A stretch of 64,000 nucleotides of DNA, from NCBI GenBank assembly GCA_964522165.1, contig CAZFVV010000003.1:6908-70907 (forward strand), in the 5' to 3' direction. This stretch comes from an uncultured Calditrichaceae bacterium (GTDB taxonomy: Bacteria > Calditrichota > Calditrichia > RBG-13-44-9 > J075). The translations under genes were made by a program, and so were the position numbers. Positions 18,448-59,186 of this stretch are shown piece after piece. The notes below the pieces were generated by a model. That model worked only from the letters and a program-made list of their open reading frames with translations. It was not told where the DNA came from and did no database searches. Each line of letters begins with the position of its first letter. The stretch's first letter is position 1.

Positions 18448-19563
18448 ATGCGGCAATTTTCGAAGTATGGAACCATTGTTGTGCTTGGGGTGGGAATCGC
18501 CTGGCTGAGCGGTTGTTCCCGGGAAAAAGACCCGCTTAGCAGCGACCCTCCCAAGCCCACGCCCCAGGACCTCGAATGGGTCAAAACCGCGGGGCCCAAT
18601 GCCGGGGGGGTGCTCTGCCTGGCGTTCGATTCCGTCGGGAACCTGTTTGCGGGCACGGACAGCGGGGTGTATAAATCCCCCGATAAAGGGCAGAACTGGG
18701 CGCCCTTTACCACCGGTTTGCCGGGGAACGCAGTTTATGCCCTCTCGGTTGACGCCAATGACCGGGTGTACGCCGGCCTCGACGCGAGCGGCCTCTTCCG
18801 TTCTCCCGCGAGCAGCGATAATTGGGTTAACGTCGGCCCGGTAAATCGCAGCGTTTGGGCAATCGCGCTCAACGCCGCGGGGCATATTTTCACCGCCACT
18901 TCCGCGGGGTTATACCGCTCCACCGACCAGGCCGCCACCTGGACCCCGGCCAACAACGGGCTGAGCGACTCCCTGGTGCTCTCCCTGGCTTTTGGAACTT
19001 CCGGGGAAATTTTCGCCGGGGGCAGTTTAAAGGGCGTTTTCCGTTCCAGCGACAACGGAAATAGCTGGTCGCAGACCGGGCTGCCTATCGGAGCCATTCT
19101 GGCGCTGGCGATTGACGGAGAGGGCAGGCTATTTGCGGGAACCCTGGGAGCGGGGTTATACTTTTCCACCAATCACGGAACCAGTTGGAGTTGGGCGCTC
19201 CCGGCAAACGGTTTCCATGCCACTGTGGTGTACGACGTCGCGGTCAACTCCGACGATTTTCTGTTTGCCTGCGGGCACGGGGATGGGGTGTATCGTTCGA
19301 CCGATCACGGGGTAAATTGGGAGGAGAAGAATGCTAACCTGACCTCCAAAATCGTCCGTTGCCTGGCGCTGGACCGCGATGAAAGGTTGTTCGCCGGCAG
19401 CGACAGCGGATTTGTGTATTACACTTCCAATCCCACCACCATCCAGCCGGGGAGTTACCCACCCCTTAATCCCCTCCCGGGAGGGGAAATAGGGGATAGT
19501 TACATTTCGCCTTTTATTAGCCGGCTTTTGTCGATAAATTGGGCGCGGTTTTGCAAAAAATGA
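18448..19563 (+). CDS. lipoprotein with BNR/Ycf48-like beta-propeller repeats
   Basis: 371 aa; lipobox LSGCS; about seven repeats of GLYRSxDxGxxWxP (BNR/Asp-box-like, SxDxGxTW). Confidence 0.6.
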   Translation: MRQFSKYGTIVVLGVGIAWLSGCSREKDPLSSDPPKPTPQDLEWVKTAGPNAGGVLCLAFDSVGNLFAGTDSGVYKSPDKGQNWAPFTTGLPGNAVYALSVDANDRVYAGLDASGLFRSPASSDNWVNVGPVNRSVWAIALNAAGHIFTATSAGLYRSTDQAATWTPANNGLSDSLVLSLAFGTSGEIFAGGSLKGVFRSSDNGNSWSQTGLPIGAILALAIDGEGRLFAGTLGAGLYFSTNHGTSWSWALPANGFHATVVYDVAVNSDDFLFACGHGDGVYRSTDHGVNWEEKNANLTSKIVRCLALDRDERLFAGSDSGFVYYTSNPTTIQPGSYPPLNPLPGGEIGDSYISPFISRLLSINWARFCKK

Positions 19564-33493: not shown

Positions 33494-33526
33494 AGACCTC
33501 AAAGGTTTCTAAAACCTTTGAGGTCT
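33494..33526. repeat. REP-like 33-bp perfect palindrome, copy 1 (AGACCTCAAAGGTTT-ctaa-AAACCTTTGAGGTCT)
   Basis: 15-bp perfect stem; starts one base after the methyltransferase stop. Confidence 0.9.
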
Positions 33527-33542
33527 GGACCCGGCGAAGATA

Positions 33543-33575
33543 AGACCTCAAAGGTTTTCAAAACCTTTGAGGTCT
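33543..33575. repeat. REP-like palindrome, copy 2 (preceded by the ccggcgaagata leader also seen at 39385)
   Basis: agacctcaaaggttttcaaaacctttgaggtct. Confidence 0.9.
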
Positions 33576-33596
33576 GAATACCTGGAGCACCCCAAA

Positions 33597-34231
33597 ATGC
33601 AACAACTCGAAAAATTGAAACCGGGAAATTTCTACCATATTTATAACCGCGGCAATAACCGGGAAGACATCTTCTTCGAAGAGAAAAACTACCCCTACTT
33701 TTTAGAACTATACGCCAAACATATAACGCCAGTAGCGGATACATTCGCCTATTGCCTGATGAGAAACCATTTCCACCTATTGGTGAGGATAAAGGCCTCA
33801 AAGGAGATAAAGACCTCAAAGGTTTTGAAAACCTTTGAGGTCTTACCCCCGGGCGAAGAAAAACTTTTTAACTACTCCCAACCATTCTCAAATTTCTTCA
33901 ACGCTTACCAAAAGCGATCAACCGGCAGTATTTCCGTACCGGCAGTTTATTTCAGGCTCGTTTCGGAAGAAATTGGATAGCTTCTCAGGCCATTCTAAAG
34001 CATGTTATTCACTATATTCACCGCAATCCTCAGAAACATGGTTTTGTCACCGATTTTCGGGAGTATCCGCATTCTTCGTATCATACGCTTTTGGCGGATA
34101 AGAATACCAGGCTGAAACGCCGGGAAGTTCTGGAATGGTTTGGAGGCAGGGCGGCGTTTGAGAGGTTCCATATCGAGAACGGCGTTGGAGACGATGATGA
34201 AATACAGAAAATATTTGGCGACGATGAATGA
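33597..34231 (+). pseudogene. IS200/IS605-like Y1 (HUH) transposase, RAYT-like, disrupted
   Basis: MQQLEKLKPGNFYHIYNRGNNREDIFFEEKNYPYFLELYAKHITPVADTFAYCLMRNHFHLLV (HuH motif). A palindrome copy is translated in-frame at 33811-33843. A -1 frameshift at an A-run near 33920 shifts the remainder (AINRQYFRTGSLFQARF...IHYIHRNPQKHGFVTDFREYPHSSYH...) into another frame ending TGA 34229-34231. Confidence 0.65.
33811..33843. repeat. REP-like palindrome, copy 3, inside the transposase reading frame
   Basis: agacctcaaaggttttgaaaacctttgaggtct, preceded by the partial direct repeat aaggcctcaaaggagata. Confidence 0.9.
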
Positions 34232-34238
34232 ATCGAAA

Positions 34239-34271
34239 AGACCTCAAAGGTTTCCGAAACCTTTGAGGTCT
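34239..34271. repeat. REP-like palindrome, copy 4, 25 bp upstream of the DGR target gene
   Basis: agacctcaaaggtttccgaaacctttgaggtct. Confidence 0.9.
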
Positions 34272-34295
34272 ATAGCCTTAAGGAGAGGATGATTT

Positions 34296-37200
34296 ATGAA
34301 CCGCTGGATTAAACTGCTGATCATTATTACCGCCCTGGTGGTTGCCGGGGCCACCACCTCGTATTGGGCTGGGCCGTTAATTCAATTTATCGGGGTGAAC
34401 AGTTCCCTGATCCAGGGAGTTGCCGACGCCGTTCAAACCGTCATCTGGGCAATTGCCGGTATTGTCGCGATTGTAGGATGGATCCGCCGCCCCCGCCCGG
34501 CGCCCTCAGCCGCCTCGCCCGCGCCGCGCGAAGCTCCCATGGAGCTGGAAGCCGAAAACGGTTCGCTGGTTAATACCGGCGAAATCAAAGACAGCACAAT
34601 CGTAACCGGAAAGGAGGCCCGGGTAGTGCATACCGGAACCTATATCGAGAAAGTGGAAACGCAAATCATCAAGGGCGCGCCCAACGTCGATCCCAAAACC
34701 CTGCGCGTCGCCTACCTCAACCGCTTGTTGTACTTCACCCGCGAGCTGTCCCTGGCCGGAATCGATCCCCAGGCGGCCAGCGAGCCGACCGCCGCGCTCA
34801 AATTAGACGCCGTTTATACCGCCCTCCGCACCATGACCCCGGAGGACCAGGAACGCCTGGAGCAGGGCAAAAAAATGGATCGAGAGACCCGCTATCTCTC
34901 CGCGCTGGAACAGTTGAACCGCCGCCAATACCTGGTATTGTTAGGCGACCCCGGCAGCGGCAAAAGCACCTTTGTCAATTTTGTAGCCCTGTGCTTAACC
35001 GGGGAGGGGCTGGGGATGCCGGATGCCAATCTAACTCTCCTTACCGCCCCGTTGCCGGATGAAGAAAAAAAGGAAAAAGAAGCCCCCCGGCCCCAGCCCT
35101 GGAACCACGGGGCGCTGCTGCCGGTGCGGGTGATTTTGCGCGACTTTGCCGCCCGGGGATTGCCGCGTAGCGGCCAAAAAGCCACCGCCGGGCACCTCTG
35201 GAACTTCATCCGCGCGGAGTTAAAAGCCCTCTCGCTTGAAAATTACGCCGATCATCTGCAACAAGAGTTGCTCGATAAAGGCGGGCTAATCTTGCTCGAC
35301 GGGCTGGATGAGGTGCCGGAAGCGCAGCAGCGCCGCATTCAGATCAAACAGGCGGTGGAAGAATTCAAAGCGGTTTACCGTAAATGCCGCATTCTCATCA
35401 CCAGCCGCACCTACGCCTACCAGAAACAGGATTGGCGGCTGCCGGAGTTCCAGGAAACCATCCTGGCGCCCTTTAGCCACGGGCAAATCGAGGCGTTCGT
35501 GGAACACTGGTACGAACACGTGGGGAGCCTGCGGGGATGGCCGGAAGATAAGTACCGCGGCGGGGCGGCGCTGCTCAAACGCGCCATTTCGGGCAGCCAG
35601 CGGTTAGGGGAGCTGGCCGGGCGTCCGCTGTTGCTGACCTTAATGGCCAGCCTGCACGCCTGGCGGGGCGGAACTCTCCCGGAAAAACGCGAAGAACTCT
35701 ACGCCAACGCGGTGGACCTGCTGTTAGACTGGTGGGAAAAACCCAAAATCGTGCGCGACGCGCAAGGCGCGCCGGTGGTCTTGCAGCCCAGCCTTTCGGA
35801 GTGGCTCAACCTGGGCCGCCAGAAAGTGCGCGACCTGCTCAACGAGCTGGCCTATACCGCCCACGCCGCCCAGCCGGAATTGCAGGGCACCGCGGATATT
35901 CCCGAAAGCAAACTGGTGGAAGGCCTCCTGAAGCTCTCCGGCAATCCGGATCTGAAACCGCAGCGGCTGGTGGAATACCTGAGCCAGCGCGCCGGGCTGC
36001 TGCTGCCCCGCGGGGTGGAAGTCTATACCTTTCCCCACCGCACCTTTCAGGAGTACCTGGCGGCCTGTTATTTGACCGACCACGATTTTCCCGATGCGGT
36101 GGCGGAACTGGCCGGCAACGACCCCAATCGCTGGCGGGAAGTGGCGCTGTTAGCCGCCGCCAAAGCCGCCCGCGGCTCCGCTTCCACCATTTGGGGGTTT
36201 ATCGAGGCGTTATGTTACCGCGACTGCGACAATGCCTCCCCCGCGGCAAAGGCGCTGTGGGGCGCGCACCTGGCCGGGCAGGCCCTGCTGGAAATTGTGG
36301 ATACTTCTAAAATCAGCGAACGGAATCAGCCCAAGGTAGAGCGGGTCAAAACCTGGCTGGTTCACCTGCTCTCCCGGGCGGATTTCCCGGCGCTGGAGCG
36401 CGCCGAGGCCGGGCGCAATCTTGCCCGCTTAGGCGACCCCCGCCGGGAAGCGCTGGAAGTTGACGCCCTGCAATTTTGCTGCGTGCCCGCCGGCCCCTTC
36501 TGGATGGGCAGCGAGGAAGCTGACCGGGAAAAGCCCCTGCATTTAAATGAACAGTTGGATAAACCCTGCTGGATTTCTAAATTTCCCATTACCAACGCCC
36601 AGTACCGCCGGTTCGTGGAAGACGGCGGGTATGGGCAGGAAGGGTACTGGCGGGAAGCAAAGGCGGCAAAGGTGTGGCAGGGGGGAAAGATAAAAGCCTG
36701 GAATGACGATACCCCGCGCGAAGCCCCGTTCGATTTCGGCGCGCCTTTCCACCTTCCCAACCACCCGGTGGTGGGAATTACCTGGTACGAAGCCCTGGCC
36801 TTTACCCGCTGGCTGACCGGGCGCTGGCAAAAAAGGGGCTGGCTGCCCCGGGGCGGGATCGTGCGCCTCCCCTCGGAAGCGGAGTGGGAAAAAGCCGCCC
36901 GCGGGGGAGAGAAAATTCCTTCCGCGCCGGTCGTTCGTTCTGTTCAAGAATGGTCAATTGCCAATTGGCAATTCACAATTGGCAATTGGCAATTAAAAAA
37001 TAATCAACGCCGCTATCCCTGGGGCGACGAACCCGATCCCAACCGCGCCAATTACGCCGATACCGGCATCGGCAGTCCCAGCGCGGTGGGCTGCTTTCCC
37101 GCAGAAGAACGCAGGGGCGATTCGCGAATCGCCCCTGCATACGGATGTGAGGAGATGAGCGGGAACGTATGGGAGTGGTGCCAGACCCAATGGCGGGGAA

Positions 37201-37382
37201 ATTACCAAAAACCGGCGAATGAATCGCTGGAGGGGACGTCAGCCCGTGTTGTTCGCGGCGGCGCGTTCGGCAGCCCCGACGGCAGCGTGCGGTGCGCGTA
37301 TCGCATCTACGTCGTTCCCGATTCTCGTAACTACTACCTCGGGTTTCGTGTGTCGCTGTTCCCATTTACCTCTGGTCTCTGA
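34296..37382 (+). CDS. DGR target protein: N-terminal 2-TM segment, NACHT (STAND) NTPase, helical region, C-terminal FGE-sulfatase/C-type-lectin-fold domain carrying the variable repeat
   Basis: 1028 aa; TM helices in residues ~5-60; Walker A LLGDPGSGKSTF; NACHT Walker B LILLDGLDEV; C-terminal FGE-sulfatase family motifs (HPVVGITWYEALAFTRWL, RLPSEAEWEKAARGG, RRYPWGDE, GNVWEWC, RVVRGGAF); the VR occupies the last ~40 codons. Confidence 0.85.
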   Translation: MNRWIKLLIIITALVVAGATTSYWAGPLIQFIGVNSSLIQGVADAVQTVIWAIAGIVAIVGWIRRPRPAPSAASPAPREAPMELEAENGSLVNTGEIKDSTIVTGKEARVVHTGTYIEKVETQIIKGAPNVDPKTLRVAYLNRLLYFTRELSLAGIDPQAASEPTAALKLDAVYTALRTMTPEDQERLEQGKKMDRETRYLSALEQLNRRQYLVLLGDPGSGKSTFVNFVALCLTGEGLGMPDANLTLLTAPLPDEEKKEKEAPRPQPWNHGALLPVRVILRDFAARGLPRSGQKATAGHLWNFIRAELKALSLENYADHLQQELLDKGGLILLDGLDEVPEAQQRRIQIKQAVEEFKAVYRKCRILITSRTYAYQKQDWRLPEFQETILAPFSHGQIEAFVEHWYEHVGSLRGWPEDKYRGGAALLKRAISGSQRLGELAGRPLLLTLMASLHAWRGGTLPEKREELYANAVDLLLDWWEKPKIVRDAQGAPVVLQPSLSEWLNLGRQKVRDLLNELAYTAHAAQPELQGTADIPESKLVEGLLKLSGNPDLKPQRLVEYLSQRAGLLLPRGVEVYTFPHRTFQEYLAACYLTDHDFPDAVAELAGNDPNRWREVALLAAAKAARGSASTIWGFIEALCYRDCDNASPAAKALWGAHLAGQALLEIVDTSKISERNQPKVERVKTWLVHLLSRADFPALERAEAGRNLARLGDPRREALEVDALQFCCVPAGPFWMGSEEADREKPLHLNEQLDKPCWISKFPITNAQYRRFVEDGGYGQEGYWREAKAAKVWQGGKIKAWNDDTPREAPFDFGAPFHLPNHPVVGITWYEALAFTRWLTGRWQKRGWLPRGGIVRLPSEAEWEKAARGGEKIPSAPVVRSVQEWSIANWQFTIGNWQLKNNQRRYPWGDEPDPNRANYADTGIGSPSAVGCFPAEERRGDSRIAPAYGCEEMSGNVWEWCQTQWRGNYQKPANESLEGTSARVVRGGAFGSPDGSVRCAYRIYVVPDSRNYYLGFRVSLFPFTSGL
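36954..36993. repeat. in-frame AT-rich CAATTG-based repeat inserted within the FGE/CLec domain coding sequence
   Basis: caattgccaattggcaattcacaattggcaattggcaatt encodes ...WSIANWQFTIGNWQLKNN... between the conserved RGG and RRYPWGDE motifs; local GC is far below that of the gene. Confidence 0.6.
37241..37361 (+). repeat. DGR variable repeat (VR) at the 3' end of the target gene
   Basis: 121 bp aligns without gaps to 37886-38006; 18 mismatches, 17 of them at positions where the TR has adenine. Confidence 0.85.
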
Positions 37383-37410
37383 AATCTCTGAACTCTGAAA
37401 CTCTGGAAGA

Positions 37411-37460
37411 TTTCATCCCGATTTGCATCCAGGGATGGATGCGTTTTTGTCGGGATGAAA
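37411..37460. other. nested stem-loop (cruciform-prone) about 30 bp downstream of the target gene stop
   Basis: tttcatcccga-ttt-[gcatcc a ggg a tggatgc]-gtttttg-tcgggatgaaa; flanked by direct repeats gaaactctg (37397 and 37457). Confidence 0.55.
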
Positions 37461-37482
37461 CTCTGAAAAAGGAAAAATTTTT

Positions 37483-37827
37483 ATGGCCCAACCCGAGATG
37501 CCTATTTTTGTTCGTACCTTTGATTTTCTAAGCTGGCTGCTGCCGGCAACCAACCATTTTCCCCGGGCGCACCGGCATTCGTTTACTCAACGCCTGTTGG
37601 ACGCCGGGTTCGATTTACGGGAGCATTTGGAGGAAGCCAATCTGCGCAAAGGAAAAGAGAGGTTAGAGCGATTAACCAGCGCCGATGCAGCGTTAGCCAA
37701 AGTACGATTGTATTTGCGCCTGGCGGTTAAGTGGGGATGGTTTTCCCAGGGACAATACGAACACGTCTCCCGCATGGTGGTGGAGATCGGGCGCCTCCTG
37801 GGCGGTTGGAAGAAAGTAACGGTTTAA
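37483..37827 (+). CDS. avd: Avd-like DGR accessory variability determinant (four-helix-bundle protein, 23S rRNA-IVS protein family)
   Basis: 114 aa, basic, all-helical; FDFLSWLLPATNHFPRAHRHSFTQRLLDAGFDLREHLEEAN resembles the four-helix-bundle (Avd) family; lies between target gene and TR as in canonical DGRs. Confidence 0.65.
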   Translation: MAQPEMPIFVRTFDFLSWLLPATNHFPRAHRHSFTQRLLDAGFDLREHLEEANLRKGKERLERLTSADAALAKVRLYLRLAVKWGWFSQGQYEHVSRMVVEIGRLLGGWKKVTV

Positions 37828-37832
37828 GTTTA

Positions 37833-37865
37833 AGACCTCAAAGGTTTCAAAAACCTTTGAGGTCT
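37833..37865. repeat. REP-like palindrome, copy 5, between avd and TR
   Basis: agacctcaaaggtttcaaaaacctttgaggtct. Confidence 0.9.
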
Positions 37866-37885
37866 TAAGGGGCAGGCTCATACGC

Positions 37886-38006
37886 AGCCCGTGTTGTTCG
37901 CGGCGGCGCGTTCAACAACACCGACAACAACGTGCGGTGCGCGTATCGCAACAACAACGATCCCGATAATCGTAACAACAACATCGGGTTTCGTGTGGCG
38001 CTGTTC
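37886..38006 (+). repeat. DGR template repeat (TR)
   Basis: Non-coding copy of the target 3' end, rich in AAC triplets (aacaacaccgacaacaac...cgcaacaacaacgatcccgataatcgtaacaacaacatc); the adenines are the sites that differ in the VR. Confidence 0.85.
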
Positions 38007-38047
38007 ACGTTTTTCAAAGGGTAAAGGCCTCAAACGACAATGGATAA

Positions 38048-38080
38048 AGACCTCAAAGGTTTCCGAAACCTTTGAGGTCT
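38048..38080. repeat. REP-like palindrome, copy 6, 42 bp downstream of the TR
   Basis: agacctcaaaggtttccgaaacctttgaggtct; preceded by ggcctcaaacga...ataa as at 33791. Confidence 0.9.
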
Positions 38081-38272
38081 AACTTCCGAAGGTTTTTACG
38101 TTGCTGGAAATGCCCGGCGCGCTGGAAATGAGTGGTCGGGGTTCCGGGCCGAAGCGAAAAATGGCCGAGCCTGTTCCGGGCCTTTCCCGGGCTTCCCCGG
38201 GAAAGGGCAAATAACAACCCTCCCGCCTCCTGCCCTATAAGGGGTTGAGGCGGGAGATTTTTATAGCCGAAA

Positions 38273-39307
38273 ATGTTTGACGCATTAATTTCATGGGATA
38301 ATCTTTACCTGGCGTATAAAAAAGCCGGCAAAGGCAAACGCGGGCAGATCGATGTGGCGGATTTTGAGTATGCTCTGGAAGAAAACCTGCTGCGGCTGCA
38401 AGAAGAATTGCGGGATCAGACTTATGCACCGGGTGGTTACCACAGTTTTTACATCCACGAACCCAAACGGCGATTGATCAGCGCTGCGCCGTTCCGTGAC
38501 CGGGTGGTTCACCATGCCCTGTGTAATCTCACTGAACCTGTATTCGAGCAGAGTTTTATTTTTGATTCTTACGCCAATCGGGTGGGAAAAGGAACTCACC
38601 ACGCTTTGGATCGCTGCCAGCAATACGCCCGGCATTACCCCTATGTGCTGCAATGCGACCTGCGGCAGTTTTTTCCCAGTATCGACCATGCGATTTTGCG
38701 CCAAATCTTAATGCGGAAAATCGCTGAACCTGCAGTATTATGGTTGATCGATCAAATTCTCCGCAGCGGCGAGGGCGTATTAAGCGAGGCATACGCAATG
38801 GTCTATTTTCCCGGGGATGATTTGTTCGCCGCCAACCGCCCGCGCGGTTTGCCAATCGGCAATCTGACCAGCCAGTTTTGGGCCAATGTTTATCTCAATC
38901 CCTTTGACCATTTCGTCAAACGAGAGTTACGCTGCAAAGCCTACCTGCGTTACGTGGATGACTTTTTGCTTTTCGGGGAAGACAAAGCCACATTATGGCG
39001 CTGGAAAAAGGCCATTACCAAACGCCTGGAACAGTATCGATTGACAATTCATCCGACGGCTCATCCCCGCCCGGTAGAGGAAGGGATACCGTTTTTAGGA
39101 TTCATCGTCTTCCGGGAAAAGCGACGCTTGAAACGCAGGAAAGGAATTTTTTACCGCAGAAAACTGAAATGCCTGATTTCAGACTACCATTCCGGCGATC
39201 TACCCCTGGAAAAAATTAAGCAGAGCGTGCAGGGATGGATTAACCACACCCGTTACGCTAATACCATCGGGCTGCGCAAAAGCCTGTTAGGAAAAATGAA
39301 AATATAA
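38273..39307 (+). CDS. DGR-type reverse transcriptase
   Basis: 344 aa; RT motifs 1-2 RLISAAPFRDRVVHHAL; motif A LQCDLRQFFPSIDH; DGR-diagnostic motif LPIGNLTSQFWANVYLNPFD (IGxxxSQ); motif C YLRYVDDFLLFG (YVDD); no maturase or endonuclease domains. Confidence 0.9.
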   Translation: MFDALISWDNLYLAYKKAGKGKRGQIDVADFEYALEENLLRLQEELRDQTYAPGGYHSFYIHEPKRRLISAAPFRDRVVHHALCNLTEPVFEQSFIFDSYANRVGKGTHHALDRCQQYARHYPYVLQCDLRQFFPSIDHAILRQILMRKIAEPAVLWLIDQILRSGEGVLSEAYAMVYFPGDDLFAANRPRGLPIGNLTSQFWANVYLNPFDHFVKRELRCKAYLRYVDDFLLFGEDKATLWRWKKAITKRLEQYRLTIHPTAHPRPVEEGIPFLGFIVFREKRRLKRRKGIFYRRKLKCLISDYHSGDLPLEKIKQSVQGWINHTRYANTIGLRKSLLGKMKI

Positions 39308-39323
39308 TAATTCCAAAGGTTGA

Positions 39324-39380
39324 AGACCTCAAAGGTTTCTCCCGTAAGGGATGGCTTACGCCACAAAACCTTTAAGGTCT
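39324..39380. repeat. REP-like palindrome, copy 7 (split; 24-bp insertion in the loop, one stem mismatch)
   Basis: agacctcaaaggttt-ctcccgtaagggatggcttacgccac-aaaacctttaaggtct. Confidence 0.7.
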
Positions 39381-39396
39381 AAATCCGGCGAAGATA

Positions 39397-39429
39397 AGAC
39401 CTCAAAGGTTTCAAAAACCTTTGAGGTCT
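39397..39429. repeat. REP-like palindrome, copy 8, 22 bp upstream of the next gene
   Basis: agacctcaaaggtttcaaaaacctttgaggtct, preceded by ccggcgaagata as in copy 2. Confidence 0.9.
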
Positions 39430-45355: not shown

Positions 45356-47044
45356 TCAGCGCAGCAGGTGCATCCGGCGGGTCTGGGTAAAATCTCCGAT
45401 TTCTATGCGATAAAAATAGATTCCGCTGGCCGCCGCTCTTCCCGCGGCGTCGCGCCCGTCCCATTCCACCCGGTGCTGCCCGGCGGGAAGATATTCCTCA
45501 ACCAGGGCGCGAAGCTTATTGCCCAGGATGTCGAATATCTCCAATCGAACCGCTCCTGGCCGGGAGGTATCGAAAACAATGGCGGTGGAGGGGTTAAAAG
45601 GGTTGGGGTAGTTGGGATGCAAATAAAACTCCCGGATTTCATTGCCGGCCTGGGGCGCAACCGGGGTAGAGCTTTCATATTCGAAAGCCCCCACGTCGTA
45701 ATTGCCCGCCAAACGGGGGTAGCCGTCGTAATCATGGGTTACTTCCGGAATATCCTCCCCCGCGTTAATTGCCGGGCTATTGGCGCTCAGGTGGTAATTA
45801 AACGCGCCGGCGTTTATGAAAAACGAAGCGTCGGCGGATAAATTGCTGGGATGGGATGCGTCGCCTGGCTTAGTTCCCATGAACAGGCAGTTTCGCAGAT
45901 CGAATCCCGCAGAATTATAACCCCCGGAAACGTTCTGGAAATACTCCCCGCTGCCGCCCTTATCAAAAGTACTGTTATAGACGTGCAGGATTTCTACCCC
46001 GTCTTCATTGCGGAACGCTTTGTCGTTGTTATAAACAATGCTGTTAATAATGGTCACGTAAGCGCCCCCGCGGCTGCCCGGCCCGCGCAGGCGGAAGGCG
46101 ATTTCGTTGTCATAAACTTTCACCGCGATCAGTTGGCATTCCACTTTTTCTTTGATGTTGAACGCCGCCCGGTTGTTGATGTAGCCGGGTACGAAGCCGT
46201 AGGATTCCACGTTGCGAATGGTAATGCGGGCGCGGTAGGCGGTTCCCACCGCCTCTTCGTTGATTTTGGTATCCACCCCGTTCTCCCCGGGGATTTCCCC
46301 GGCGTTCCAGCCCGCGGCGTTGGCCGGCAGCGGCCCGGTCCACAGTTTGCAATTTTCGATCAGCACGTTGTCCCACAACGGGTAGCCCCGGTCCGGGTCG
46401 GTCTGGAAACAGTCCCCGGAAACGTAATAAATGTTGCACCCGCGAACAGTCAGGTTATTCTCTCCCGCGGCCACGATGCCGTGCGCATCCACCTGGTTGC
46501 TGATGGAACCGGCCAGGAAGTGGTGAATTTCGCAATTTTCGATCAACACGTCATCGGCCATGCTGAGGTCGATGCCGTCTTTGGTGCCGTTTTTGATCTC
46601 GCAATTGCGCACAATCGCGTTGTCGCCGCCGGAGCGAATTCGCACCACGTCGGCGTTGCCGAACTGCCCGTCGATAATGAATCCGTCGATGATATGATAA
46701 GCGTGATTCAGGTAGAGCACCTGCCCGGCATTAGTTACCAGCGGGCGGTTGGCCGGATCGTATGCTTTGACGGTGATGGGCTGGGCAACGGTCCCGTCCC
46801 GCTGGCTGGTAATCTGGTCCGCATACACCCCGGGGAGCACCAGCACCACGTCGCCGGGCTGGGCGGCGTCCATGGCCGAGCTGAAATTGTTAAAGGGGCT
46901 GGAAAAGGTTCCGTTCCCGTTGGCGGGCACATCATCGAGGTAATATTCCGCGGCGCTCAAGCACGCCGCACATCCCATAATCAGCAAAACAAAACCGACC
47001 GGTAAAATCTTAGCCATCCTTGCGCTCCTTATTTTCGTCTTCAT
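45356..47044 (-). CDS. right-handed beta-helix (pectate-lyase-fold) protein with T9SS C-terminal sorting domain
   Basis: 562 aa; signal peptide; repeated NCxIxN/GxxxxNNxF rungs; C-terminus HPNYPNPFNPSTAIVF...IYFYRIEI...RMHLLR. Confidence 0.6.
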   Translation of the reverse strand: MKTKIRSARMAKILPVGFVLLIMGCAACLSAAEYYLDDVPANGNGTFSSPFNNFSSAMDAAQPGDVVLVLPGVYADQITSQRDGTVAQPITVKAYDPANRPLVTNAGQVLYLNHAYHIIDGFIIDGQFGNADVVRIRSGGDNAIVRNCEIKNGTKDGIDLSMADDVLIENCEIHHFLAGSISNQVDAHGIVAAGENNLTVRGCNIYYVSGDCFQTDPDRGYPLWDNVLIENCKLWTGPLPANAAGWNAGEIPGENGVDTKINEEAVGTAYRARITIRNVESYGFVPGYINNRAAFNIKEKVECQLIAVKVYDNEIAFRLRGPGSRGGAYVTIINSIVYNNDKAFRNEDGVEILHVYNSTFDKGGSGEYFQNVSGGYNSAGFDLRNCLFMGTKPGDASHPSNLSADASFFINAGAFNYHLSANSPAINAGEDIPEVTHDYDGYPRLAGNYDVGAFEYESSTPVAPQAGNEIREFYLHPNYPNPFNPSTAIVFDTSRPGAVRLEIFDILGNKLRALVEEYLPAGQHRVEWDGRDAAGRAAASGIYFYRIEIGDFTQTRRMHLLR

Positions 47045-56201: not shown

Positions 56202-59186
56202 ATGTTTTTGCGATTAATGAGCGTCTTTTTCGTAGCCGCGTTGCAAGGGCTTCTGCTTGCCCAGCCGGTCATTACGATTAAAGACGGCGATATCAACGCC
56301 GGCCAGAGCGTTACCTGGACGTCCGACAACGCGTACTTGTTGGATGGCCTGGTGTTCGTAGAAGACGGCGCGACCCTTACCATTCAAGCCGGAACCGTGG
56401 TCAAAGGCAAAGAAGTGCCCACCACCGGCGACAACACCAGCGCCCTGATCATCGCCAGGGGCGGGAAAATCTACGCCCTCGGCACCGCCACCCAGCCGGT
56501 AATTTTCACCGCGGAGAGCGACGACGTAAGCGATCCGAACGATTTAACCCTGAACGACCGGGGTTTGTGGGGCGGGTTGATCCTGTTAGGTTACGCGGAG
56601 ATCAATACCACCACCGGGGTGGGGCAAATCGAAGGGATTCCCTCCACGGAACCTCGCGGCTCTTACGGCGGCGGCCACGTTAGCCCCAATGACGACGATA
56701 ACTCCGGGGTGGTGCGCTACGTTTCCATCCGCCACGGGGGCAGCGAGATCGGGGCCGGCAACGAGATCAACGGATTGACGTTAGGCGGGGTCGGTCGCGG
56801 CACCACCATCGAATACGTGGAAGTGTATAGCAACTTAGACGACGGTTTCGAGTGGTTCGGGGGCACGGTGAACTGCAAGTACCTGGTGTCGGCCTTTGTG
56901 GGCGACGATGATTTCGATTACGACGAAGGTTACCGGGGCAAAGGGCAGTTCTGGTTTGGGATCAAAGACGTGTTAGTCGGCGGCGGCCGGGTGGCGGAGC
57001 AAGACGGGGGCACCGAGCCGGAAGACGGCCAGCCCTATGCCATCCCGCTGATTTCCAACGTGACCTACTTGGGCGCGGGGGCGGGCAATACTCCGCAGGG
57101 CGACGGCGCGGAGCTGATGATTTTCCGCGATAACGCCGGGGGCAAGTATTACAACAGCATTTTCACTGATTACAACGGCGCGAACGGGGGGAAGGGAATC
57201 ACCGTGGAAGATTTGGCCAGCGGGGAAGACAGCCGGGCGCGGTTGGAGGCGGGGCAGTTGGTGCTGAACAACAACATCTGGTGGAACTTTGCGGCGGGGA
57301 ACGGATTGAGCCAGTTTGCGCCGCAGCAGTTCGTGGCCGACCATTTGGCGGCGAATAACAACCAGATCGTGGACCCGCAGATCAACAGCGTCAGCCGGGC
57401 GCAGAACGGGCAGTTGGACCCCCGTCCCAACGCTTCCGGCCCTGCCGCCAGCGGCGCGACGCCGGTAAACGATCCCTTCTTCACCCCGGTCAGCTACTAC
57501 GGCGCGTTCAATCCCGGCGCACCCCTGTGGACTTCCGGCTGGACCGCGCTCTACGATGAGGAAATCATCTCCCAGACCATCACCATTCAGGATAATTTTA
57601 TCAATCCCGGCGAGAGCAAAGCCCTCACTGCCAATAACGTGTACCTGTTAGACGGCCTGGTGTTCGTGGAAGACGGCGCCATCCTCACCATCGAAGCCGG
57701 AACGGTGATCAAGGGCAAAGAAGTGCCCACCACCGGCGACAACACCAGCGCCCTGATCATTGCCCGGGGCGGGAAAATCTACGCCGAAGGCACCCAGAAT
57801 TACCCGATTATCTTCACCGCGGAGAGCGACGACGTAAGCGATCCGAACGATTTGACCCTGAACGACCGGGGTCTGTGGGGCGGTTTGATCCTGTTGGGCT
57901 ACGCGGAGATCAATACCACCATCGGGGTGGGGCAGATCGAAGGGATTCCCTCCACGGAACCGCGCGGCGCTTACGGCGGGGGCCACGTTAGCCCCAATGA
58001 CGACGATAACTCCGGGGTGGTGCGCTACGTTTCCATCCGCCACGGGGGCAGCGAGATCGGGGCCGGCAACGAGATCAACGGATTGACGTTAGGCGGGGTC
58101 GGTCGCGGCACCACCATCGAATACGTGGAAGTGTATAGCAACTTAGACGACGGTTTCGAGTGGTTCGGGGGCACGGTGAACTGCAAGTACCTGGTGTCGG
58201 CCTTTGTGGGCGACGATGATTTCGATTACGACGAAGGTTACCGGGGCAAAGGGCAGTTCTGGTTTGGGATCAAAGACGTGTTAGTCGGCGGCGGCCGGGT
58301 GGCGGAGCAAGACGGGGGCACCGAGCCGGAAGACGGCCAGCCCTATGCCATCCCGCTGATTTCCAACGTGACCTACTTGGGCGCGGGGGCGGGCAATACT
58401 CCGCAGGGCGACGGCGCGGAGCTGATGATTTTCCGCGATAACGCCGGGGGCAAGTATTACAACAGCATTTTCACTGATTACAACGGCGCGAACGGGGGGA
58501 AGGGAATCACCGTGGAAGATTTGGCCAGCGGGGAAGACAGCCGGGCGCGGTTGGAGGCGGGGCAGTTGGTGCTGAACAACAACATCTGGTGGAACTTTGC
58601 GGCGGGGAACGGATTGAGCCAGTTTGCGCCGCAGCAGTTCGTGGCCGACCATTTGGCGGCGAATAACAACCAGATCGTGGACCCGCAGATCAACAGCGTC
58701 AGCCGGGCGCAGAACGGGCAGTTGGACCCCCGTCCCAACGCTTCCGGCCCTGCCGCCAGCGGCGCGACGCCGGTAAACGATCCCTTCTTCACCCCGGTCA
58801 GCTACTACGGCGCGTTCGACCCCAACGCCCCGGTGCTCTGGACGAATCGTTGGACCGCTTTGAACGGGGAAAGGGTGACCGGCATTAAAGACCGGCAGTT
58901 GGATGGCAACGGGCTGGCTCCCAATGCCTTCGCCCTCAGCCAGAACTATCCCAATCCCTTCAACCCCAGCACCAACATTCGCTACAGCCTGCCGCGGGCG
59001 ACCAACGTGAAGATTACGGTTTATAACCTGCGCGGGCAGTTAGTAGCGACGCTGGTGGACGGATACCGGGCCGCCGGCGAGTACCTGGTAACCTGGAACG
59101 CCGCCAACCTGGCCAGCGGGGTATATTTCTACCGCCTGGAAGCGCCGGGGACGGTGGAAACCCGCAAAATGATGCTGCTGCGTTGA
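56202..59186 (+). CDS. secreted protein with an internally duplicated ~436-aa module and T9SS C-terminal sorting domain
   Basis: 994 aa; signal peptide; two tandem modules (residues ~23-458 and ~459-894); C-terminus NYPNPFNPSTNIRYSL...VYFYRLEA...KMMLLR. Confidence 0.6.
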   Translation: MFLRLMSVFFVAALQGLLLAQPVITIKDGDINAGQSVTWTSDNAYLLDGLVFVEDGATLTIQAGTVVKGKEVPTTGDNTSALIIARGGKIYALGTATQPVIFTAESDDVSDPNDLTLNDRGLWGGLILLGYAEINTTTGVGQIEGIPSTEPRGSYGGGHVSPNDDDNSGVVRYVSIRHGGSEIGAGNEINGLTLGGVGRGTTIEYVEVYSNLDDGFEWFGGTVNCKYLVSAFVGDDDFDYDEGYRGKGQFWFGIKDVLVGGGRVAEQDGGTEPEDGQPYAIPLISNVTYLGAGAGNTPQGDGAELMIFRDNAGGKYYNSIFTDYNGANGGKGITVEDLASGEDSRARLEAGQLVLNNNIWWNFAAGNGLSQFAPQQFVADHLAANNNQIVDPQINSVSRAQNGQLDPRPNASGPAASGATPVNDPFFTPVSYYGAFNPGAPLWTSGWTALYDEEIISQTITIQDNFINPGESKALTANNVYLLDGLVFVEDGAILTIEAGTVIKGKEVPTTGDNTSALIIARGGKIYAEGTQNYPIIFTAESDDVSDPNDLTLNDRGLWGGLILLGYAEINTTIGVGQIEGIPSTEPRGAYGGGHVSPNDDDNSGVVRYVSIRHGGSEIGAGNEINGLTLGGVGRGTTIEYVEVYSNLDDGFEWFGGTVNCKYLVSAFVGDDDFDYDEGYRGKGQFWFGIKDVLVGGGRVAEQDGGTEPEDGQPYAIPLISNVTYLGAGAGNTPQGDGAELMIFRDNAGGKYYNSIFTDYNGANGGKGITVEDLASGEDSRARLEAGQLVLNNNIWWNFAAGNGLSQFAPQQFVADHLAANNNQIVDPQINSVSRAQNGQLDPRPNASGPAASGATPVNDPFFTPVSYYGAFDPNAPVLWTNRWTALNGERVTGIKDRQLDGNGLAPNAFALSQNYPNPFNPSTNIRYSLPRATNVKITVYNLRGQLVATLVDGYRAAGEYLVTWNAANLASGVYFYRLEAPGTVETRKMMLLR
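56268..58883 (+). repeat. direct tandem duplication, 2 x 1308 bp, with a ~0.9-1.0 kb near-identical core
   Basis: Minus-strand ORFs at 56973-57344 and 58281-58652 (and 57170-57484 / 58478-58792) are identical, giving an offset of exactly 1308 bp; only a few synonymous differences occur near the 5' ends of the units. Confidence 0.85.

Follow-up and report, generated by a model that had tools for sequence, protein, structure and literature searches.

The closest described relatives of the locus analysed here are cellular diversity-generating retroelements (DGRs) that rewrite sensor-like proteins. Doré et al. (PNAS 2024; PMC10907252) described cellular DGRs of clade 5D, reported chiefly from multicellular or filamentous bacteria, whose targets are STAND/NACHT-CLec 'putative antigen sensors'; adaptive-like antigen sensing by this class is proposed, not proven. 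The prototype of the machinery is the mtd-avd-TR-brt cassette of Bordetella phage BPP-1, whose ribonucleoprotein (RNP) of reverse transcriptase (RT), Avd and RNA is known in structure. Its RNA provides a stem-loop, a priming region, a stop duplex, a further stem-loop, unpaired adenosines and an RT-binding stem-loop (10.1101/2023.10.23.563531). Here we describe positions 34296-39307 of a 64-kb stretch of contig CAZFVV010000003.1 (the window), which very probably constitute a complete chromosomal DGR, one of already published architecture and target class: STAND/NACHT-CLec (PMC10907252).

The locus joins features of both systems. As in the STAND/NACHT-CLec DGRs, a central NACHT domain is fused to a C-terminal C-type-lectin (CLec) fold that bears the variable repeat (VR), the element is cellular rather than phage-borne, and the N-terminal modules of its target family vary; points of difference are its single target, its Calditrichia-like host and a two-helix membrane anchor as N terminus. 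With BPP-1 it shares gene order, adenine-specific differences between VR and template repeat (TR), a VR end that resembles the initiation of mutagenic homing (IMH) site and is unlike the TR end, and a hairpin with a GRNA loop. It departs from BPP-1 in being chromosomal, in diversifying a 1028-aa protein resembling NOD-like receptors (NLRs) and not a phage tail fibre, and in having palindromes similar to repetitive extragenic palindromes (REPs) within the RNA-coding region. The locus adds a well-resolved example of hypermutation at the sensor tip of an NLR-like NACHT protein, in what appears to be a Calditrichia host.

Cassette, repeats and target protein

Four elements, all on the + strand of the open reading frame (ORF) map, make up the cassette. 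The target ORF (34296-37382, 1028 aa) carries the VR at its C-terminal end; it is followed by avd, encoding the accessory variability determinant (37483-37827, 114 aa), by the non-coding, intergenic TR (37885-38012) and by the ORF of the DGR RT (38273-39307, 344 aa). The initial annotation had seen the same four co-oriented elements in the order target/VR, avd, TR, RT, and each lies where it had put them. Its overall reading as a DGR stands as well: RT clade, mismatch spectrum and integrity of the genes, points on which it had said that the reading could fall, favoured a DGR as far as they were open to test. Genes around the cassette are ordinary chromosomal genes of housekeeping type and not phage genes.

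The two repeats differ at template adenines. Positions 37240-37367 and 37885-38012 form an ungapped direct repeat of 128 nt at 84% identity, so that the non-coding copy of the target's 3' end reported earlier is real and is longer than the 121 bp then given. Scored by template base, as that annotation had proposed, 18 of the 20 mismatches fall on the 30 adenines of the TR (hypergeometric P = 3.5e-12), which upholds its claim of adenine specificity. Within the first 99 nt (37240-37338), the mutable part, 17 of 29 adenines are substituted (seven to G, seven to T, three to C), against none of the 70 other bases. The following ~29 nt (37339-37367) form an invariant, IMH-like end in the VR/TR alignment, where the VR end ..TTCCCATTT and the TR end ..TTCACGTTT show a contrast of the IMH/IMH* type. 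Mismatches outside the mutable part are confined to the last 15 nt, at 37353, 37362 and 37364. The A-to-C change at 37362 is the ..CCC../..CAC.. difference between VR and TR ends; every one of the 12 VR/TR pairs examined shows it, and this clade-conserved difference accounts for the mismatch. The G-to-A change at 37364 recurs only in the related locus L009. No second VR-like copy exists elsewhere in the 64-kb window.

The template is built to vary residues without truncating the protein. The VR spans target codons 982-1024, and translation of the TR in the VR frame gives NNTDNN..YRNNNDPDNRNNNI, with 18 adenine-containing codons, 11 of them AAY and none mutable to a stop. Seventeen lie inside the mutable part, and 13 of these encode a different amino acid at present. 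About 17 codons at the tip of the target can thus be rewritten, slightly more than the dozen suggested before, and the protein repertoire computed from the TR is ~10^17.

RT and Avd both belong to DGR families. The RT carries IGNLTSQ at residue 195 and YVDD at residue 227, the motifs by which it had been recognised (as IGNxxSQ and YVDD on a 344-aa protein), and matches Pfam RVT_1. Its nearest solved relative over residues 2-334 is the BPP-1 DGR RT (PDB 8ub7_A; E = 3.5e-45), ahead of the best group II intron RT structure (E = 2.8e-19) by 26 orders of magnitude. Avd passes the NCBIfam equivalog NF033474 (DivGenRetAVD) with 89.9 bits against a cut-off of 80 and Pfam bAvd with 66.3 bits against 40 (E = 4e-18), and its PDB matches include Bbp7 and BPP-1 Avd, which turns the earlier 'Avd-like' ORF into a DGR Avd.

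The same results bear on whether the RT comes from another retroelement, such as a group II intron, a retron or an Abi/DRT system, beside a 128-nt repeat that is a diverged partial gene duplication. The RT does match group II RT-maturase, retron and DRT models below threshold, and annotators at the Joint Genome Institute (JGI) label its relatives 'retron-type RT'. These scores lie far below the curated cut-offs, however (134.6 against 300 bits for the NCBI group II RT-maturase model TIGR04416, 46.9 against 235 bits for retron St85), which speaks for the DGR clade. Rfam, run at gathering thresholds on the whole 64-kb window, found no intron, retron or other RNA family. With the adenine-specific mismatch spectrum, the structural match and a curated DGR Avd between VR and TR also against it, this alternative is refuted, and we give it practically no chance.

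Relatives of the cassette repeat its layout. We fetched eleven related loci with RTs 66-76% identical to that of the window (L006, L007, L009, L011, L012, L014 and L016-L020), nine with gene tables and Pfam matches and two (L006, L007) with ORF and repeat maps only. All nine loci with an annotatable target (RT identity 70-76%) have the order CLec-domain target, bAvd, TR, RT. A NACHT match is recorded in eight of these nine targets, L020 listing FGE-sulfatase only; the target of L011 is cut by a contig end. Their VR/TR pairs show the same adenine-specific pattern. Some relatives carry further NACHT- or AAA-type CLec targets near the RT, often two or three in all, and the window's locus is compact, with one.

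The target is an NLR-like NTPase with a diversified lectin-fold tip. Two hydrophobic segments form transmembrane (TM) helices at residues ~4-26 and 42-63, followed by a disordered linker (65-127), a NACHT NTPase (212-407; Pfam, 38.3 bits against a cut-off of 26.7) whose Walker A (GDPGSGKST) and Walker B motifs lie at residues 217 and 333, an NLR-like helical stretch, and the FGE-sulfatase/CLec fold (729-1019; Pfam E = 5e-43) that the initial annotation had already assigned to the C terminus of the 1028-aa gene product. An AlphaFold2 model built on 65 homologues (mean predicted local distance difference test score, pLDDT, 81; predicted template modelling score, pTM, 0.67) shows an N-terminal helical hairpin (2-64), the linker, an NLR-like NTPase region and a C-terminal FGE/CLec fold. 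Foldseek matched the NTPase part to NOD2, NLRC4, NLRP3 and NLRP9, and the C-terminal part to FGE, EgtB, OvsA and ToxD. Treponema TvpA, itself a variable protein, aligns with the VR region (2y3c; E = 1.7e-4). Like the window's target, TvpA of Treponema denticola is a CLec protein of FGE-sulfatase type with its VR in the last ~40 residues; unlike it, TvpA is a lipoprotein of ~290 aa lacking an NTPase, whereas the CLec fold of the window is the C-terminal module of a NACHT protein.

By analogy, the most plausible role of the target is that of an NLR-like sensor, open to diversification, that acts in a defence or conflict pathway. Its TM segments are flanked by R3/K6 and RRPR, which under the positive-inside rule would leave the NACHT and CLec domains in the cytoplasm. 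The N terminus holds only the two-helix TM hairpin and the disordered linker, with no recognised effector domain, and no protease or effector gene is evident among the neighbours of the cassette. Homologues of the NACHT half number more than 100 at 52-70% identity; among the homologues listed, 115 of 119 (query excluded) have PF05729 together with PF03781. N-terminal modules are swapped among them: TM hairpin, NNH2, EAD7, TIR or zinc-ribbon. The closest relatives of the CLec domain are at most 55% identical and mostly short stand-alone proteins.

The CLec-coding region also contains two in-frame palindromes, at 36956-36994 and 37109-37140. One is a 21-nt tandem duplication (CAATTGCCAATTGGCAATTCA twice) that translates to IANWQFTIGNWQL; a 14-bp stem marks the other, which codes for part of ERRGDSRIAPA. 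In homologues the loops at both places vary in length, model confidence being lower at the first, and these palindromes could be small insertions that surface loops tolerate.

Spacer RNA and priming

A conserved spacer (Sp) core between TR and RT can be mapped onto the BPP-1 RNP. We compared cis elements over 12 loci, the window and its eleven relatives, with the BPP-1 RT-Avd-RNA structure. On the + strand, the core (38103-38256) consists of a stem-loop P1 (38112-38149), GCGAAAAATGGC (38154-38165), a stop strand GAGCCTGTTCC (38167-38177), a stem-loop P2 (38178-38208), an unpaired AAATAACAAC (38209-38218) and a stem-loop P3 (38219-38256). RNAalifold on five loci predicted 34 pairs in Sp, 17 of them with compensatory changes, in P1, P2 and P3. 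The sequence of the core is identical in four other public contigs. We infer from position only which BPP-1 element each part of the spacer RNA represents.

A long-range duplex links the spacer to the far side of the TR. Its upstream strand, GGGGCAGGCTC (37869-37879, +), lies in the gap between avd and TR, 5 nt upstream of the TR, and pairs over 11 bp with the stop strand GAGCCTGTTCC. The segments were hand-picked by eye from conserved flanks; over ten distinct sequences the duplex is 96% paired, with seven of 11 pairs compensatory. None of 500 shuffles scored as high, and shifted registers drop to 35-53% paired. The duplex corresponds in position to the 'cPRT Stop' avd:Sp duplex of BPP-1 and would be its counterpart, with the difference that the upstream strand of BPP-1 lies inside avd.

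A second helix would set the start of cDNA synthesis. TTTTTC at the 3' edge of the TR (38010-38015, +) is predicted to pair with GAAAAA of the spacer (38156-38161), and we infer that this is the template:primer duplex, placing the cDNA start near G38009. Taken alone, the helix is statistically weak, since 28 of 300 window shuffles do as well; at both positions L012 has TTCTTC/GAAGAA. Every cis element required can be assigned a place on the prototype RNP, which makes the locus a good candidate for reconstitution.

An insertion of ~80 nt (38016-38102), containing a REP-like hairpin (38048-38080, +), parts the TR from the Sp core. At the same junction L009 and L012 carry unrelated palindromes, and L014 and L011 have no insertion, which indicates that the junction tolerates insertions. 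We considered the hairpin as an Avd-binding stem-loop and set that aside, given that L014 and L011 lack the insertion and have P1 at that position.

The 23 nt 3' of this palindrome (38081-38103) differ at nine positions from those of JGI contig L001 (144-166), which comes from a different sample. Elsewhere L001 matches the window exactly, in the 3' part of the TR, the palindrome, the RT and the other 170 nt of spacer. Either the hairpin has a local hotspot beside it, or the assembly of a repeated element went wrong here.

The flank of the variable repeat

A regularly spaced CTCTG array follows the VR and is apparently an undescribed element in this DGR clade. In the window, five CTCTG(A/G) motifs (37370-37406, +; starts 37370, 37377, 37386, 37393 and 37401; spacing 7, 9, 7 and 8) begin 2 nt past the end of VR/TR homology and take in the target stop codon; a sixth CTCTG lies at 37461-37465. 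With clusters defined as at least four motifs, this array is the only one on either strand of the 64-kb window. Nine other loci with a mapped VR hold 13 clusters, each directly after a VR, second and third VRs of L014, L016 and L018 included where present: L007 1989-2023; L009 3348-3382; L012 4693-4720; L014 5197-5231 and 10337-10371; L016 4247-4282 and 9103-9153; L017 4104-4155; L018 105-171, 3327-3393 and 9327-9393; L019 3917-3953; and L020 4072-4113. No cluster follows any TR in the loci scanned. The VR flank of L011 has three motifs, under the threshold, and the single cluster of L006 sits on the minus strand, immediately beyond the RT, in a place without a mapped VR.

Position and spacing of the arrays are conserved, and the letters between motifs vary. 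Arrays start 2-8 nt after the VR in the window and ten related loci, five is the commonest copy number, and the spacing 7-(8/9)-7-(7/8) holds in 12 of the 15 arrays measured; those of L011, L019 and L020 contain a gap of twice the length (15-17 nt). When 2.9 million viral contigs were scanned for the array, six matches came back, none adjoining a VR. A full-text literature search for DGR with 'CTCTG' turned up nothing relevant, and elements that flank the VR receive no discussion in Doré et al. (PMC10907252).

The array could conceivably be the clade's target-recognition element, an ssDNA or RNA docking site for a multimeric factor such as the pentameric Avd, a speculative proposal that we rate as unlikely. 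If true, the docking site would direct the cDNA to the repeat that it is to overwrite and would offer a concrete means, open to mutation, of probing a step of retrohoming still unsolved, how the cDNA finds and enters the VR. Array, VR-end/TR-end difference and covarying spacer RNA are testable candidate determinants of target choice in cellular DGRs. A simpler role for the array, as provider of stops in three frames, was rejected: most arrays stop only two of three frames, and about a quarter of the motifs are CTCTGG.

Beyond the array lies a nested inverted repeat (37411-37460, +), a candidate for both the DGR target hairpin or cruciform and an intrinsic terminator. Its outer arms are 37411-37421 and 37450-37460; its inner 8-bp stem (37424-37431 with 37436-37443) encloses the 4-nt loop GGGA and is followed by TTTTT. 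Phage DGR target hairpins have a stem of 7-10 bp and a GRNA loop (Guo et al. 2011, PMC3240598), and the stem and loop of the window fit that rule.

Four relatives have a GC-rich hairpin after the CTCTG array (L009 3398-3423, L011 1386-1409, L019 3977-4027, L020 4137-4161), with arms reading CCAGAGGGGG / CCCCCTCTGG, that is, a CTCTG motif and its complement. The hairpin at this position in the window is of different, non-homologous sequence.

Activity, palindromes and host

Together, these elements outline how the locus would work. By analogy with BPP-1, an RNA that runs from the avd-TR gap through the TR into the spacer would fold through the GGGGCAGGCTC:GAGCCTGTTCC and TTTTTC:GAAAAA pairings. 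RT and Avd would self-prime from a spacer adenosine, copy the TR into cDNA and misincorporate opposite ~29 template adenines. The cDNA would then replace the VR from 37240 to ~37338, its direction set by the IMH-like, invariant end of the VR and by the CTCTG array and GRNA-loop hairpin of the VR-specific flank. The predicted outcome is up to ~10^17 variants of 17-18 residues on the CLec surface of a membrane-anchored protein.

We lean, without great confidence, towards a DGR that is mutating at present. RT and Avd are intact and of full length with their catalytic motifs kept, leaving no inactivating lesion of the kind the initial annotation had asked about; the spacer RNA keeps all its conserved blocks, and the mutable part of the VR has no non-adenine difference. 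The competing account is a complete DGR that is silent or disabled, its VR a frozen record left when REP insertions or missing host factors stopped the cycle. The integrity of genes, RNA blocks and mutable part speaks against it, as do the identical Sp cores in the four other public contigs and the palindromes at the same insertion point in L009 and L012. We regard it as the less probable account, and a serious one.

Several observations weigh against the active reading or parts of it. The 3.2-kb contig of the Logan assembly of run SRR15237813 (L027) is 100% identical to the window, VR included; an identical allele in an independent run assembly, and a VR that assembles cleanly, are what a silent element would give. 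The cluster of exact target proteins holds the window allele and one 93%-identical strain only, and the contig of that strain is an assembly chimera that runs VR into TR. The G-to-T mismatch at 37353, in the IMH-like VR end, is not at an adenine, has no explanation and likewise fits a silent element. The ~80-nt insertion with its REP-like hairpin might impair priming, two relatives tolerating insertions there notwithstanding; another hairpin abuts the upstream stop-duplex strand, and the decayed transposase-like gene next door (below) suggests an ageing island. The flank hairpin lies 56 nt from the VR, with the CTCTG array between, and has only four G-C pairs, whereas phage DGR hairpins lie 4-34 bp from the VR and have GC-rich stems (PMC3240598). 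As for the proposed function, no defence-system model in PADLOC matches the target, which is why the sensor role is assigned by analogy only.

Searches for other alleles returned a single VR. In the public assemblies that could be read, one VR allele is present and no other was found; RT-side contigs of other runs end inside the TR or spacer. Two degenerate VR/TR pattern scans of metagenome contigs found none; the second pattern occurs in L001, a contig that the scan did not return, which places it outside the collection scanned. No fragments of the target gene with other VRs came up when the CLec domain alone served as query.

REP-like palindromes crowd the island around the cassette. A perfect 33-nt palindrome, AGACCTCAAAGGTTT-NNN-AAACCTTTGAGGTCT, occurs in seven copies and one split copy, all inside 33494-39429 (5.9 kb), with none in the other 58 kb of the window. 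Two copies lie upstream of a gene resembling REP-associated tyrosine transposases (RAYTs), at 33494-33526 and 33543-33575, and one inside that gene, in frame (33811-33843). The next is 25 nt upstream of the target start codon (34239-34271). On the + strand, one stands between avd and TR directly 5' of the stop-duplex strand (37833-37865), and another is the hairpin in the ~80-nt insertion; 38018-38088, around the latter, is 82% identical to 33786-33851. The last complete copy follows the RT (39397-39429), as does the split copy (39324-39338 / 39366-39380). No T-run follows the REP-like hairpins on the + strand, so they need not terminate the DGR transcript. Related AGACCT...AGGTCT palindromes lie inside the DGR cassettes of L009 (3441-3479), L019 and L020 (five copies).

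The RAYT-like gene (33597-34231, +) encodes a decayed Y1, IS200-like transposase with one frameshift near 33912. Stitched across it, the protein matches nearly the whole of the NCBIfam model REP_Tyr_transpos at E = 5e-14; its 52.4 bits, obtained with that one frameshift correction, lie below the 80-bit family cut-off. As in REP/RAYT systems, 33-nt palindromes cluster around and flank a gene for a Y1-like transposase; unlike in those systems, the gene is frameshifted, interrupted by a palindrome and below the cut-off, and within the 64 kb the palindromes are confined to the DGR island.

These features raise the question of whether 33494-39429 is a hairpin-bounded mobile island, with a Y1 (IS200/RAYT-like) gene, the DGR as cargo and REP doublets as ends. 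The confinement of all palindromes to this segment and the RAYT-like gene fit that idea, as do 65-nt REP doublets, 91% identical and in direct orientation, at its two ends. So do the related palindromes in other DGR cassettes, the different genomic contexts that related DGRs occupy, and a Calditrichia-like host set against RT relatives mostly from Chloroflexota. Hairpin copies at four further, internal sites misfit a simple transposon with two ends, however, and the transposase is frameshifted, interrupted and sub-threshold. Neither an empty site nor a second copy of the island was found, and no RAYT-like gene was seen beside related DGRs, the candidates next to those of L019 and L020 giving no Pfam match. 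We consider mobilisation of the island in this form improbable.

The host appears to be a Calditrichia bacterium. Several of the window's housekeeping proteins fall into 90%-identity clusters that also contain proteins named Calditrichaceae or Calditrichia (for example those of 1279-2727, 18448-19563, 45356-47044 and 56202-59186). Homologues of the RT run into the thousands; identities within the top 120 span 69-77%, and the named ones are mostly metagenome-assembled genomes (MAGs) of Chloroflexota/Anaerolineae. A genome-collection scan with the RT found only relatives of 66% identity, and a viral-contig scan found none. Named relatives of the target, like those of the RT, are mostly Chloroflexota MAGs, and on a Calditrichia-like chromosome this suggests a probable cross-phylum transfer of the cassette, or else mis-binning of some MAGs. 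One cluster mate of a housekeeping protein is labelled Candidatus Brocadia sp. WS118.

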